From contig JBEKGO010000001.1 in the NCBI GenBank assembly GCA_050012755.1, forward strand, positions 1 to 64,000: 64,000 nt of DNA, read 5' to 3'. Made by a program: the position numbers and the translations under genes. The stretch comes from Candidatus Bathyarchaeia archaeon. Lineage in GTDB: Archaea; Thermoproteota; Bathyarchaeia; Bathyarchaeales; Bathycorpusculaceae. The notes below the pieces were generated by a model, which did not search any database, was not told where the DNA came from, and saw only the letters and a list, made by a program, of their open reading frames with translations. The first letter of the stretch is position 1. Each line of letters opens with the position of its first letter. This document shows, in pieces, positions 1,427 through 33,050 of the stretch.

Positions 1427-1504
1427 TGGTGGACGAGCCGGGATTTGAACCCGGGACCTCCACGATGCCAACGTGGCGATCATGCCAGACTGATCTACTC
1501 GCCC
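1427..1504 (-). tRNA. tRNA-Ala(GGC), CCA encoded
   Basis: Reverse complement GGGCGAG...CCACG-TTGGCAT-CGTGG...GGTTCAAATCC...CTCGTCCACCA folds as a cloverleaf. Confidence 0.95.
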
Positions 1505-29417: not shown

Positions 29418-30308
29418 TTATTTCGATTTTAGAGATACCAATGCAATCGCGATGACAATTAAGAAGGCTCCAATGCTGGAGAATATTGTAATTGGCTCTT
29501 TCAAAACTATGATCGATAAGATGACTGCAACTACTATTTCAGATAAAAGCAGAATTGTCGAAGTAGACGCTGAAAGATGCTTAAGCCCTTCCAGCCACAT
29601 ATAATATGGTAGAACCCAACAAACTATTGCTGTGTAAAAAATCGCCAACCATGCGGTTCCTGTTAAATCAAAAAATCGTGGGCCAGACAAAACCGCGAAA
29701 GGCGCAATTGTAAGCATCGTTAATACAAGAACCCACGTCATAGATTGAAAGGTCGCCGAAGTTGAATTCATAATCAATTTCTTGTTGTAGATCATGAAAA
29801 GCGCCCAAGAAACACCTGAAACGATGAGCATCAAGTCCCCGATTAATTGCCCTTGACCTATCGTTGAAAAATCCAAGTTGGTGCTGACAAATACGATTCC
29901 CGTTAATCCAAATAATACACCGGCAATTTTCTTTTTCGAAAAACTTTCACCCAGCAACTTGGGACTTAAGATGGCAACCCAAATGGCGCTTAGGTTAATG
30001 AAAAGTGCAGCCTTTGCAGCGGTTGTATAATTCATGCCTACGTATTGAAGCAGGTAACCTGCGGCGTTCGCAATTCCTAAAAAGACGAGTAGCTTCTTGT
30101 TTGCCATTTTGAATTCAAGCTTTCTGAGAAGCAGCATTACAACCAGCAATGTGGTGGTTGCAACTAGAAACCGCCAAAAAACAAACGCGAACGGGTCAAT
30201 GTATGTTAAGCCGATTTTGATAATTGGAAATGAGGTGCCCCATAAGATGCCTGCTAGTATGGTTAGGAAGACGGCTCTGCTTTTTTTGGTTAACAGTGGA
30301 TTATGCAA
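29418..30308 (-). CDS. EamA/DMT family transporter
   Basis: LWGTSF, two EamA repeats, ~10 TM. Confidence 0.9.
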   Translation of the reverse strand: MHNPLLTKKSRAVFLTILAGILWGTSFPIIKIGLTYIDPFAFVFWRFLVATTTLLVVMLLLRKLEFKMANKKLLVFLGIANAAGYLLQYVGMNYTTAAKAALFINLSAIWVAILSPKLLGESFSKKKIAGVLFGLTGIVFVSTNLDFSTIGQGQLIGDLMLIVSGVSWALFMIYNKKLIMNSTSATFQSMTWVLVLTMLTIAPFAVLSGPRFFDLTGTAWLAIFYTAIVCWVLPYYMWLEGLKHLSASTSTILLLSEIVVAVILSIIVLKEPITIFSSIGAFLIVIAIALVSLKSK

Positions 30309-30410
30309 CCGCTTGTCTCCTTGATAGGTTTTCTCATAAGCAGGCTGAATTATAAAGGCTCTTTAGGCTCTGCTGATCTTTGACTTTGCCTTTGTACTTG
30401 GATTGCTTGG

Positions 30411-31168
30411 GAGAGTTTTTTTGGGACGCGAGGAGACGCAGCGAGACGGGAGAAGACGCAGGGAGACGCACAGAGACCCGTAGAGCCGCAGCTTGCAAGA
30501 AAATTAAGCTTCCACGCAGAAAAGCAACTTGAACCACAAAGAAAAAAAATGGGGAGGTTTGCTTAGGTTTGCGCAGGTGTGCTTGCTTTTGCTTCTGTTT
30601 GCTTCCTTTTGCTTAGGTTTGCTTCTGTGTACGCAGCCCGCAGAGGATTTAGATTCTGCTTCAAAAAACCAACCTAAAATACAAAGAACAAAATTGCGGA
30701 ACTTTTTCAGATTTTGACGGGCAGTGACGTTCTGTGACGTTTTATGACGTGTGGTGACGTTTAGTGACGTTTGGCGACGGATAGTGACGTATAGTGACGC
30801 AGCCTGCAAGGAAATCAAGTTTTGAATCAAAAAAGCAACCTGAAACACAAAGAACAAAAACAGTGGCAAAAGTGAAGCCCATGGACCCTCCCTCTCTTTC
30901 TGAACTTTTTTGGACTTTTTCCGACTTTATTAGACTTTATTCGACTCAACCTGCCAATAAAACAAACCCTAAACATAAAAAGCAACTTAAAACACAAAAA
31001 ACAAAAACTGCACAAAGAACCGTCAATAACAGATTCGGGACACAATAGACCAACCTGTCACTTCCTTTTTCTCACATTTTATCACAGATTCTCACATAAA
31101 AAACCGCAACCTGCAAACACCACAAGCCCCAAATCAAGAAAGCAACCCAAAACACAAACAACAAAAAT
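30411..31168. repeat. Composite non-coding array: five 63-bp repeats, each preceded by a 10-bp-period micro-repeat tract
   Basis: Repeats start at 30488, 30633, 30799, 30946 and 31106 and align without gaps. Tract motifs are GAGACGC, TTTGCTT, GTGACGT, GACTTT and TCACA. Confidence 0.9.
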
Positions 31169-31255
31169 TGCGCCGTCCGAAGCAAAAATGCCTAAATAGC
31201 TACTGCACCAAGAGAAAATCGAAAATCAGAAACTATCCACCAAAGAGAACTTGTT

Positions 31256-32389
31256 ATGTTTAGAACCGGTGTCGCAAATTTGCCTCTTCATGGTGGCAAA
31301 GCACCTTCATGGCTTACCGTTCGAATGCGTAAATTAGCCAAAGAAATAGCCGACATCATGGTTGAGGAATATGGCACACAAACTTTTATTCAGCGTTTGT
31401 CGGATCCGTTTTGGTTTCAAGCTTTGGGCTGCGTTTTAGCCTACGATTGGCACAGCAGCGGAGTCACCACCGTAGTCACGGGCATCCTCAAAGGCGCCAT
31501 TTCGCCGGAAGAGCACGGCATCGCTGTCTGCGGAGGAAAAGGCAAAACCTCAAAGAAAACACCAAGCGACATCGCCGTGGCAGGTGAAAAGTTCGGTTTC
31601 TCAGAAGAAACAATCCAAGCCCTAACTTATGACAGCAAGATGGCTGCAAAAGTTGACAGCGCCGCAATTCAAGCGGGATACCAACTGTATCACCACGCCT
31701 TTTTAGTAACAAGAGATGAGGAGTGGGCTGTTATTCAGCAGGGCATGAGCGAGCAAGACCGCTCGGCGAGACGTTACCATTGGCTATCAGATAACGTGGC
31801 TGATTTTGTTGTTGAACCGCACAACGCCATAGTCGGAGATACAAAACGTGAAATGGCCCTCAACATGGTAGCAAAGGATAGCGAAGCCGCAAGAAAAACA
31901 TCCGTTGACCTTGCCAAAGAACCCACACGCAAACTCATGAATCTCATTCAATCCACAGCAAAACCGCTCAACCAAGCTTCACTGCAAGATTGGCTACCAA
32001 AAACAGATGACCCTTGGCAGCAAACCCTCAATACGCTTAACATGCCCAGAAACATCAATTGGGATACGCTGAGCAGAGTGTACGAGTTTCAACCCAGTAA
32101 CTATGAGGAACTGTTAAGTGTGAAAGGAGTTGGGCCGGCCACGGTTCGCGGTTTAGCACTTGTAGCAGAGTTAGTTTATGGAGAAAAACCAAGTTGGGAA
32201 GATCCAGTGAAATTCAGTTTTGCATTCGGAGGCAAAGACGGTGTTCCCTATCCAGTTGATCGCAAAGCAATGGATGAATCAATCCAAATTCTCAAGGAAT
32301 CGGTGCAGCAAGCTAAAATCGGAGATAAAGAGAAACTGCGTTCGCTTCAGAATCTAATGCGGTTTGTTCCAGAGGATGCAAACTCTTAA
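31256..32389 (+). CDS. DUF763 family protein
   Basis: LPLHGGKAP, DPFWFQ, DWHSSG, AKVDSAA, HhH-like KGVGPAT, GGKDG.P.PVD. Confidence 0.9.
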   Translation: MFRTGVANLPLHGGKAPSWLTVRMRKLAKEIADIMVEEYGTQTFIQRLSDPFWFQALGCVLAYDWHSSGVTTVVTGILKGAISPEEHGIAVCGGKGKTSKKTPSDIAVAGEKFGFSEETIQALTYDSKMAAKVDSAAIQAGYQLYHHAFLVTRDEEWAVIQQGMSEQDRSARRYHWLSDNVADFVVEPHNAIVGDTKREMALNMVAKDSEAARKTSVDLAKEPTRKLMNLIQSTAKPLNQASLQDWLPKTDDPWQQTLNTLNMPRNINWDTLSRVYEFQPSNYEELLSVKGVGPATVRGLALVAELVYGEKPSWEDPVKFSFAFGGKDGVPYPVDRKAMDESIQILKESVQQAKIGDKEKLRSLQNLMRFVPEDANS

Positions 32390-32429
32390 AACAAGTTAAA
32401 CCCACTAAGGTTGCTGAGGAATCAATGGG

Positions 32430-33050
32430 TTGTCTGATTCTAGGGCAAACAGTCTGCAAAGAATTGGTGCGGCAAGCGGAATAATAGCTCCCATTTTCGC
32501 ATTCATCTGCATCATAATTGCAATCGCAACCCATCTCCAATTCAGTTGGATAAATAATGCCCTAAGCGACTTGGGAGTTATACAGGGTGTTACGGGGATA
32601 ATTTTCAATGTCGGGCTGTTCGCTTGTGGCCTTCTCGCCTTAAACTTTGCAATATTTGGCATGTACTCATATTTTAAGGGAAATTTGCTTGGCAAAATTG
32701 GCGTAGGTGTCTTTGCAGCGGCAACAATAGCTTTAATCTGCATAGGAATATTTAACGAAAATTTTTCTCCAACACACTACTTGGTTTCTGTTGCTTTCTT
32801 TGTATTTCTACCAATTTCTCTGTTGATTATTACAGGCACTTTCGCAGTTAAACACCAAACAAAGATGGCTATGTTCACGATACTTGTTGCAATCATCGCT
32901 GCAGCTCCATGGGTTCTGTATTTTATAATCCATTATGCACCAAACGTAGCCATTCCAGAAATCATCTCTGGTCTCGCCGGAGCAAGCTGGATAATTACAT
33001 TAGGCATCAAAATTCTTGAAAAAAACAGATCCATTGAAACAATTAATTAA
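32430..33050 (+). CDS. DUF998 family membrane protein
   Basis: FSW..NALSDLG, IFN, GIF, H, AIPE. Confidence 0.8.
   Translation: MSDSRANSLQRIGAASGIIAPIFAFICIIIAIATHLQFSWINNALSDLGVIQGVTGIIFNVGLFACGLLALNFAIFGMYSYFKGNLLGKIGVGVFAAATIALICIGIFNENFSPTHYLVSVAFFVFLPISLLIITGTFAVKHQTKMAMFTILVAIIAAAPWVLYFIIHYAPNVAIPEIISGLAGASWIITLGIKILEKNRSIETIN

Follow-up and report, generated by a model that had tools for sequence, protein, structure and literature searches.

Phased 10-bp box arrays in a genus of Bathyarchaeia as candidate operators of a diversified family of PhS018-like proteins

What is the role of a DNA array in which one constant unit alternates with tracts that share a 10-nt period, each with a motif of its own? 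The question arises from a 64,000-nt stretch of the genome of a Candidatus Bathyarchaeia archaeon (hereafter the window; positions 1 to 64,000 of contig JBEKGO010000001.1, assembly GCA_050012755.1), which belongs to a group that is abundant in peat and wetlands and uncultured. The array lies at 30411-31168, inside a 950-bp intergenic gap flanked by diverging EamA-family and DUF763 genes. It holds five ungapped, A/C-rich copies of a 63-nt unit, spaced 145, 166, 147 and 160 nt apart and 62-78% identical to the reference copy, and Tandem Repeats Finder places a period-10 array directly 5' of every one of them (Table 1). The initial annotation had described the same units, spacings and exact 10-bp tracts, its start coordinates differing from ours by 1-2 nt. 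It saw in them either one-face protein-binding arrays (serving as centromere, partition site, origin, chromatin or SMC organiser) or a cassette array that gains distinct motifs next to a fixed repeat. We propose that the tracts are probably operator arrays, on which one PhS018/AbrB-type monomer from a diversified protein family would sit at each helical turn, and that the window contains five orphan copies of them.

A module of tract and tail

We refer to the 63-nt unit as the tail, to the 10-nt repeats of the tract as boxes, and to the two parts together as the module; read on the opposite strand, the tail comes first and is called the head. The array is not an assembly artefact, a possibility that the initial annotation had raised: contigs from three other peat metagenome runs independently cover most of it with 0-2 differences, none of them spanning the whole (for example, X3 at 30338-30545 and 30803-31528, X4 at 30773-31086 and X5 at 30390-30587). 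The A-richness first seen on the plus strand is reflected in an AT skew of +0.14 over 30001-32000, and the reported lack of a continuous reading frame was likewise borne out. Two open reading frames (ORFs) overlap the array, of 121 aa on the minus strand and 84 aa on the plus strand; neither is supported, and a 10-nt period cannot hold a reading frame. In the sequence of the five units, a C stands at every tenth position, and this series is in register with the tail's first C (Table 1). This includes the fifth unit, whose tract had been described as ending short of its repeat. That tract is indeed shorter and more decayed than the others, but it remains in phase with its tail.

A tail profile, built from the five units of the window and iterated once, was searched against the window's own genome (G000; 2.41 Mb in 65 contigs, rated 100% complete; hereafter the host genome). 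The search recovered 127 copies of the module at 76 loci, arranged as 43 singles, 21 pairs, eight triples, two groups of four and two of five. Autocorrelation, a check that the initial annotation had suggested, gave lag 10 as the best lag over the 70 nt upstream of the tail in 122 of the 127 copies. Mean self-match was 0.61 at this lag versus 0.26-0.32 at the other lags from 5 to 15, while 2000 random genome windows had a mean of 0.26 and a 99th percentile of 0.43; the periodicity of the tracts is far beyond chance. A converse scan of the host genome identified 100 strongly 10-periodic tracts. By a strict rule 65 of these lie directly upstream of a tail, 30 more are within 150 nt of one in what is by eye the same arrangement, and five are without a tail, at least two of these being degenerate elements. 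Tract and tail therefore belong together.

A linked gene and the fold of its product

Clustering of the ORFs found within 1.5 kb of elements produced one recurrent family, of about 92 aa (10 members from 10 sources), with the consensus MPLTxRVTFKxxLQKxNRxQIPKLIRW...KDGRIxIPKL...LEVTLEP. The protein was previously unannotated, and both its linkage to the module and the co-variation described below are new findings; a literature search, with subscription journals and supplementary files outside its reach, found no description of either the element or the family. Of its 125 database relatives, nearly all lack a name or are called 'hypothetical protein'; none has a precomputed Pfam domain, and a few bear an automatic PrlF/antitoxin label.

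The host genome has eight matches to this family. Each of the six whose N-terminus is retained has the module, on the opposite strand, immediately upstream, and the remaining two are cut by contig ends on the module side. In these linked genes the tail starts 46-123 nt from the start codon, and the order in the direction of the gene is reverse-complemented tail, boxes, ATG. The same geometry recurs where gene loci were picked by protein similarity alone. On metagenome contigs it was present for 64 of 78 genes, or for 64 of the 70 that could be assessed, 8 having too little upstream sequence; in genomes of the genus the module was found upstream of 65 of 80 genes. When gene and tail are cross-tabulated over 100 genus genomes, on the assumption that both searches drew the same 100, as the listed handles indicate, 58 genomes have both, one the gene only, ten the tail only and 31 neither.

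The distance from tail to ATG is bimodal, and in both forms the boxes are phase-locked to the junction. The short form (~50 nt) has three boxes, with a Shine-Dalgarno-like motif present in all 29 cases. The long form (~100-125 nt) has 8 or so boxes, and a permissive pattern finds a TATA-like stretch between boxes and ATG in 42 of 60. A strict TATA hexamer is sparse in the head, occurring in 40 of the 127 host-genome copies, 12 of the 29 short gene-linked copies and 20 of the 60 long ones; that the promoter is located in part of the head therefore remains a guess.

The boxes of the short form, given the motif that accompanies them, are probably in the 5' leader of the mRNA. Together with the size of the units (about 145-190 nt) and their dispersed, intergenic and strand-asymmetric nature, this might be taken to mean that each unit is transcribed as a small RNA, its periodic tract acting as a protein sponge or a guide. 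We consider the chance of this to be remote. No relevant Rfam match was obtained, whether at gathering thresholds over the window or at E <= 10 over the array, and eight folds (four units on both strands) were no stabler than those of shuffled sequences (z -1.07 to +1.35). In addition, a 10-nt period is the helical repeat of DNA, which together with a DNA-binding fold points to the double-stranded molecule.

That fold comes from a confident AlphaFold (AF2) model of the 92-aa protein (predicted local distance difference test score, pLDDT, 88.9). Its closest structural match is PhS018 of Pyrococcus horikoshii (2glw), with a Foldseek template-modelling (TM) score of 0.76 (E 4e-5) and a VIA Z of 12.0 (root-mean-square deviation, rmsd, 1.9 A; 83 of 92 residues aligned). 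On the strength of this model, the protein is a single-chain, pseudo-dimeric beta-barrel of PhS018/AbrB type. [quoted passage not shown] Both proteins have 92 aa, the same fold and an archaeal origin. They differ in sequence, which is ~20% identical and yields a marginal match (E 0.0086), and PhS018 has no known operator or repeat element. When the AbrB model TIGR01439 was compared with four of the 92-aa proteins it gave a hit below cut-off for one, at E 0.034 and 13.9 bits against a cut-off of 28.3. A four-copy homo-oligomer prediction gave neither support for nor a verdict on contacts between proteins. The second-best structural match is PG0164 of Porphyromonas gingivalis (2d9r; Z 10.3, rmsd 1.7 A, 75 residues), a protein of unknown function.

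MraZ chains come next in the Foldseek list (probability 0.96-0.99), and include 2026 cryo-EM complexes with promoter DNA. [quoted passage not shown] The likeness to the proposed system covers 10-bp direct repeats (a 4-nt core plus a 6-nt spacer) upstream of the regulator's own gene, a single subunit per box in the major groove, bases read by a Lys-x-Arg motif on the first half-repeat and an Arg on the second, and one chain with two AbrB-like half-domains. MraZ differs in being ~150 aa long, with extra helices that form octamer rings; its gene is single and conserved, heads the dcw cluster and has 3-4 boxes. The protein described here has 92 aa and matches no MraZ model; a genome may contain up to 11 paralogues, with different box types, and over 100 arrays that lack a gene, and single arrays run to 9-12 boxes.

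Of 145 genomes that represent other genera of the class, 7 carry the gene, in 1-3 copies each, and the tail model, which is based on sequence only, found no tail in any of the 145. Among nine such genes whose upstream region was read, several have a TATA-like box, and the clearer ones have 3-4 boxes at ~10-nt spacing before the start. This arrangement looks like the ancestral, ordinary layout of an autoregulated gene, and the module itself, as far as this tail model can detect it, is confined to one genus of Bathyarchaeia.

Box bases and the residues that follow them

All host-genome copies were stacked in phase with the start of the tail. The stack has C at phase 1 in 85% of boxes (G in 3%), A at phase 10 in 65%, G (46%) or T (30%) at phase 9, and AT-rich phases 3-8. 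Diverged copies of the same class (84 pairs) mismatch at a rate of 0.022 at phase 1 and 0.039 at phase 9, versus 0.14-0.28 at other phases, and this profile correlates with within-tract variability (0.91). Each helical turn so comprises one universal base and two constrained, class-specific neighbours, the remainder drifting. The initial statement that phase and not sequence is conserved thus holds for the fixed phase and for most bases, but not for the near-invariant C and the two class-specific bases that precede it. Named by the class-specific bases, the box types of the host genome are TC (59), TA (18), CA (12), GT (9), TG (9), AC (7) and TT (4).

These figures also bear on the idea that the tracts are intrinsically curved or histone-positioning DNA, read by shape rather than through base contacts. 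The host has two histone-fold genes. A/T-only (WW) dinucleotides peak at phases 2-5 (0.54-0.63) and G/C-only (SS) dinucleotides at phases 10 and 1, resembling the positioning rule reported for archaeal nucleosomes, in which 10-bp WW repeats are offset from SS repeats (PMC3691661). Phased A/T-tracts occupy at least 5 of 7 turns in 42 of 97 tracts. We nevertheless find this explanation very unlikely. Reading by shape predicts no choice between strands, and the strand-specific choice of C at phase 1 argues against it in its pure form; 29 of the 97 tracts have A/T-tracts in no more than 2 of 7 turns; and many contain A/T-only pentamers, which the same source reports to be excluded from archaeal nucleosomes (PMC3691661). 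It also leaves gene linkage and co-variation unexplained. A-tract curvature as a universal property of the tracts was ruled out separately, on the count of 42 in 97. As to the two histone-fold genes, the genome's other five-unit array (C4:10857-11658) is ~2.2 kb upstream of one of them (C4:13815-14000), possibly by coincidence.

Co-variation was assessed in 118 distinct pairs of protein and tract. Position 10 of the box is G in 113 of them, and residue 18 of the protein tracks the first two bases of the next box. Arg18 goes with TC in 51 of 74 pairs, Lys18 with AC in 12 of 21, Thr18 with TT in 10 of 11 and Leu18 with TG in 5 of 7. A scan of every variable protein column against every box position, which used no prior on DNA-reading residues, returned as its strongest associations residue 16 with position 2 (z 19.1), residue 18 with position 2 (18.7) and residue 14 with position 9 (18.3); the next column reached z 13.0, and most others had a best z of about 2-11. 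The residues thereby picked alternate along the loop and strand equivalent to the reading motif of MraZ. In a weak local alignment with E. coli MraZ, the invariant G61-R62 of the 92-aa protein falls on G14-R15 of MraZ, and through the protein's internal twofold repeat N17-X18 and residue 16 are the first-half equivalents of the G61-R62 region, so that residues 16 and 18 correspond to Lys13 and Arg15 of MraZ. Taken together, this pattern suggests a readable residue-to-base code. The four full-length paralogues of the host genome have Q/T/T, Q/R/R, Q/G/R and Q/Q/R at residues 14/16/18; contig C2 (15854-16126) encodes a Gly16/Arg18 form, and its boxes are TC, the type associated with Arg18, while the Thr16/Thr18 form on contig C17 (24260-24535) has TT boxes.

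Gene linkage, fold, co-variation and the constraint on those very box positions are our reasons for taking the tracts to be operator boxes, and linkage and co-variation in particular favour the one-face protein binding envisaged at the outset. Read on the minus strand, the module is a T-rich 63-nt head followed by 3-9 direct 10-bp boxes, and when complete it stands directly upstream of a 92-aa gene. In the mechanism that we propose, its boxes would serve as the operator of that protein family; we infer that the protein binds to them and represses the linked gene. By analogy with bacterial MraZ on its own boxes, one monomer may occupy each box, all of them on one face of the helix. An invariant part of the protein, for which Arg62 of the second half-repeat is a guess, would recognise the near-invariant G that ends the box (C on the plus strand), and recognition of the class-specific bases beside that G would fall to residues 14, 16 and 18, which vary, in the first half-repeat. 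Orphan modules, about 115 in the host genome, may be additional regulatory targets, roadblocks for neighbouring genes, titrating sinks for the protein, or relics.

Several observations weigh against this mechanism. Linkage is incomplete in both directions: 6 of the 78 metagenome genes have no upstream module, 15 of the 80 genes in genus genomes have no detectable upstream tail, and one genus genome (G107; 98% complete, 7 contigs) has 40 tails and no match to the protein at E <= 1e-8, and may be a genome with orphan arrays only or one with a diverged regulator. In the host genome, about 114 of 125 modules are gene-less, the five units of the window among them, and the abundant CA, TG and AC types have no matching paralogue in this fragmented assembly. 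The co-variation has its exceptions, with Arg18 beside TA in 15 of 74 pairs and Lys18 beside TC in 5 of 21, and it could partly reflect clade structure. All informative independent pairs go the expected way, and two of them are on well-supported branches, an underpowered comparison (sign test p = 1); with so short a protein and so poorly resolved a tree, a phylogenetically independent test cannot reach significance. Finally, the 92-aa protein has no Pfam or NCBIfam match above cut-off, MraZ scores a VIA Z of 5.0, within the range of unrelated barrels, and an hhalign comparison with E. coli MraZ falls short of significance, its probability being 1.7 over 18 columns. Because of the weak MraZ scores, the protein is filed here as PhS018-like and not as a member of the MraZ family.

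Orphan arrays, their spread and the window

The start-codon context of the 92-aa protein follows the tract in 11 of 125 host-genome modules (seven real genes and about four truncated remnants; background 1.5%), and arrays outnumber regulator genes by approximately 15 to 1. Much of how the orphans are distributed is what might be expected of a selfish, non-autonomous mobile repeat, resembling BOX elements or MITEs (miniature inverted-repeat transposable elements), whose orphans would have no host function and whose tract would be kept through propagation alone. The tail is present in 68 of the 100 other genomes of the genus reached by the profile scan, in 1 to at least 52 copies each; over all 100 species copy number extends from 0 to at least 52, and outside the genus the count is none. 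At the orthologous DUF763 locus any unit was found in one of 29 relatives, as a single decayed copy beside the gene with a different tract; these loci can be aligned only from ~46 nt upstream of the gene, and the relatives are at most 82% identical in nucleotide sequence. Every kind of intergenic context is represented among the 76 host-genome loci (22 divergent, 17 convergent, 14 co-oriented tandem, 11 anti-oriented tandem and 12 contig ends). Of 64 cases, 36 have the tail end toward a gene start and 33 the tract end, near-equal numbers that indicate no fixed polarity toward genes. Neighbouring loci share their orientation in 25 of 29 cases within 10 kb, as local spread predicts, and in 5 of 13 beyond that distance. 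Orientation in the host genome is unrelated to GC skew (p 0.77) or to the local gene strand (p 0.22), and the flanking genes are not shorter than average (median 273 aa vs 258 aa, p 0.52).

The tracts themselves point to copying. About 19 tract clusters were distinguished in the host genome, with cores including GAGACGC, TTTGCTT, GTGACGT, GACTTTT, CTTACAT, ACACA, GTCAAA, GACCTTT and AACGC. Copies within a cluster, some of them near-identical at unlinked loci, match even at the 'variable' bases and therefore descend from common sources. In view of this recurrence at other loci, the suggestion that a cassette array adds its motifs locally is not supported. A GAGACGC unit followed by a TTTGCTT-type unit is a recurring fixed pair (Table 1), and an ACACA unit never occurs without a preceding unit whose variant tail ends in ...CAATGTACAGAGGACAAAGTC, which makes some arrays composite repeats rather than independent insertions. 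The two modes of unit spacing (about 145-150 nt and 175-190 nt) arise because some classes carry leaders. A 3' extension, TGCACAAAAAACCGTCAATAAC, follows about one third of the tails, and CCGTCAATAA occurs 34 times in the genome, with a related motif 11-15 nt past the tail in 28 of the 127 copies. Tract identity and tail identity are weakly correlated (r 0.16-0.20), a result on which nothing is built here, as the tails look saturated.

With all this in its favour, and with the truncated starts of the 92-aa gene that about four orphans retain, a purely selfish origin is still in our judgement unlikely, although it overlaps with the operator reading. No terminal inverted repeats were found, the region 29500-32500 holding four weak and distant inverted pairs, none at the end of a unit. 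A self-BLAST of the genome revealed no multi-copy insertion sequence of at least 300 bp, and neither TnpB nor a reverse transcriptase (RVT_1) was found in the host genome. The single IS200-type Y1 transposase has GC-rich hairpins of its own and no element nearby. Above all, a purely selfish model predicts no co-variation between bases and the residues of a linked protein. We consider it likely that a component of selfish spread is also present, which is compatible with the operator mechanism. The search for mobility genes also gave ten tyrosine-recombinase matches; the Y1 gene (G000:C64:2780-3172, minus strand) is on a 3.3-kb contig, and its ORF has a short internal duplication.

Dispersed intergenic repeats of modular build are well known in bacteria. 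BOX of Streptococcus pneumoniae and BIME/REP of enterobacteria have an internal tandem module of variable number between constant modules, form hairpins and have an internal unit of ~45 nt; by contrast, the Bathyarchaeia module lacks a fold, has a single helical turn as its internal unit, and can be assigned a cognate protein family. The BrickBuilt MITE of Porphyromonas gingivalis consists of a leader, a tandem minisatellite and a tail, dispersed between genes in 19 copies and restricted to the species (PMC4596501). It differs in a 23-nt repeat without spacers and small inverted-repeat ends, and has no linked DNA-binding protein, helical period or core-motif subclasses.

Type II partition centromeres, such as parC of plasmid R1, are composed of phased 10-11-bp repeats bound by small proteins, and on these grounds the initial annotation's centromere, partition site, origin or SMC loading site deserved consideration. 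The probability of any such chromosome-level organiser now appears close to negligible. One or a few sites beside partition genes would be expected, and a single 2.4-Mb genome has the modules at 76 loci, across all types of intergenic setting; their number and position are not conserved between species, and the orientation of the elements has no relation to GC skew. The comparison with skew that had been suggested went the same way, the cumulative minimum in the window falling away from the array. That minimum (-0.19) is at about 38-40 kb, followed by a steady rise to +0.18 by 64 kb; it is a possible mark of a replication origin or terminus, ~8 kb away from the array.

Other repeat classes were also rejected. 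In agreement with the initial view that the layout is neither that of a CRISPR nor that of an integron, the imperfect likeness of the repeats, the internal periodicity of their recurring spacers and the absence of an Rfam match exclude a CRISPR array (cas genes were not searched for), and integron attC sites are excluded by the absence of hairpins. The sequences have no C or D boxes, as C/D-box small RNAs would, and the repeats of type III antitoxin RNAs are ~36 nt long.

In the window, the flanking genes encode EamA, DUF763 and ABC transporter proteins, and no gene for the 92-aa protein lies beside the five units (Table 1). On the minus strand all five modules run from head to boxes toward the EamA gene, the polarity that they have toward 92-aa genes elsewhere, and, judged by sequence, the EamA gene has retained its own TATA-like box, situated between its start and the last box. 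Box types are TC in units 1, 3 and 4 (6, 9 and 4 boxes), CA in unit 2 (7 boxes) and TG in unit 5 (5 boxes, with one miss allowed). Over its last 70 nt, tract 3 (C1:30798) is identical to the tract at C55:4848 of the same genome, and unit 5 is the only one in the window that has a counterpart at the same locus in a relative (G028).

Table 1. Features of the array and its surroundings. Coordinates are those of the window unless a contig of the host genome is given; phased C positions recur every 10 nt, and TRF denotes the Tandem Repeats Finder interval.
Feature	Position	Strand	Description
EamA-family transporter gene	29418..30308	-	PF00892, E 5.7e-45
Tract 1	30423..30486	+	Six 10-nt boxes, core GAGACGC; minus-strand core GCG/TCTC, 'TC' box type; TRF 30425-30477; phased C 30427...30477, then 30487 (tail start)
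Tail 1 (constant 63-nt unit)	30487..30549	+	Start 30486/7; repeat family D1; nhmmer E 2.6e-10
Tract 2	30558..30631	+	Seven boxes, core TTTGCTT; 'CA' box type on minus strand; TRF 30555-30624 (7.0 copies); phased C 30562...30622, then 30632
Tail 2	30632..30694	+	Start 30631/2; nhmmer E 2.1e-11
Tract 3	30714..30797	+	Eight boxes and the first box of the tail itself, core GTGACGT; 'TC' type; TRF 30724-30799 (7.6 copies); phased C 30718...30788, then 30798
Tail 3	30798..30860	+	Start 30797/8; top-scoring copy genome-wide; E 8e-15, 62.5 bits
Leader of tract 4	30861-30900	+	Class-specific; directly before tract 4
Tract 4	30901..30944	+	Four boxes, core GACTTT; 'TC' type; commonest class in the genome; TRF 30904-30946 (4.3 copies); phased C 30905...30935, then 30945
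Tail 4	30945..31007	+	Start 30944/5; nhmmer E 6.8e-06
3' extension	31009..31030	+	Optional; TGCACAAAGAACCGTCAATAAC; after tail 4
Leader of tract 5	31031-31065	+	Before tract 5
Tract 5	31066..31104	+	Three clear boxes (CTCACA) plus decayed ones; TRF 31067-31097 (3.1 copies); phased C 31075, 31085, 31095, then 31105
Tail 5	31105..31167	+	Start 31104/5; nhmmer E 8.4e-09; aligns with locus L123
DUF763 gene	31256..32389	+	PF05559, E 3e-132; diverges from EamA
GAGACGC/TTTGCTT pairs	C1:30487/30632, C4:11090/11238, C38:22344/22492, C60:10128/9980, C60:6414/6282, C61:1235/1079		Recurring fixed pair in the host genome

A few further observations concern single loci. The sole Rfam match at gathering threshold in the 64-kb window is a tRNA gene (1430-1504, minus strand; RF00005, 60.3 bits). 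A hot spot elsewhere in the host genome (G000:C33:11667-27561, locus L145) has 15 modules in 16 kb among small genes, which include three PIN-domain genes, one of MazF/PemK type, one PadR regulator and three paralogues for secreted-looking proteins of ~150 aa; module orientation there flips from plus to minus between 19.7 and 24.2 kb. Species-representative genomes scanned by pattern gave matches mostly in metagenome-assembled genomes (MAGs) titled Candidatus Bathyarchaeota or Bathyarchaeia, from several unrelated projects, and 57 element-bearing loci elsewhere hold 79 more copies with the same architecture and many further core motifs. Typical copies also occur on two contigs (L060 and L070; 2.7 and 3.4 kb) of a MAG titled Candidatus Acidoferrum sp., which are probably mis-binned archaeal contigs.

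The combination of paralogue-specific boxes that follow an apparent code with arrays that far outnumber the genes stands out, and the finding is a real one and not ordinary. More speculatively, and with much less conviction than we attach to the operator arrays themselves, the 92-aa proteins and their arrays can be pictured as a diversifying, self-propagating recognition system. Residues 14, 16 and 18 would set the box, and detached arrays would spread as docking cassettes that recruit paralogue-specific filaments to silence, insulate or block transcription. If true, this would be an archaeal counterpart of mobile insulators and silencers, and a compact, re-programmable DNA-binding scaffold.

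Dispersed prokaryotic repeats, among them the BOX, BIME, heptamer and octamer families, are mostly without an identified partner; for the Bathyarchaeia module a partner can be named from sequence. Should the proposed binding of the 92-aa proteins to their boxes hold, it would provide a first function for the PhS018-type barrel, a structure solved in 2006 without a known ligand, and would extend MraZ-like reading of DNA to archaea, in a family that has split into several specificities. The suggested residue-to-base code would then be useful for protein design, and the excess of arrays over genes, at about 15 to 1, would bear on how regulons and chromatin landmarks arise from mobile DNA.

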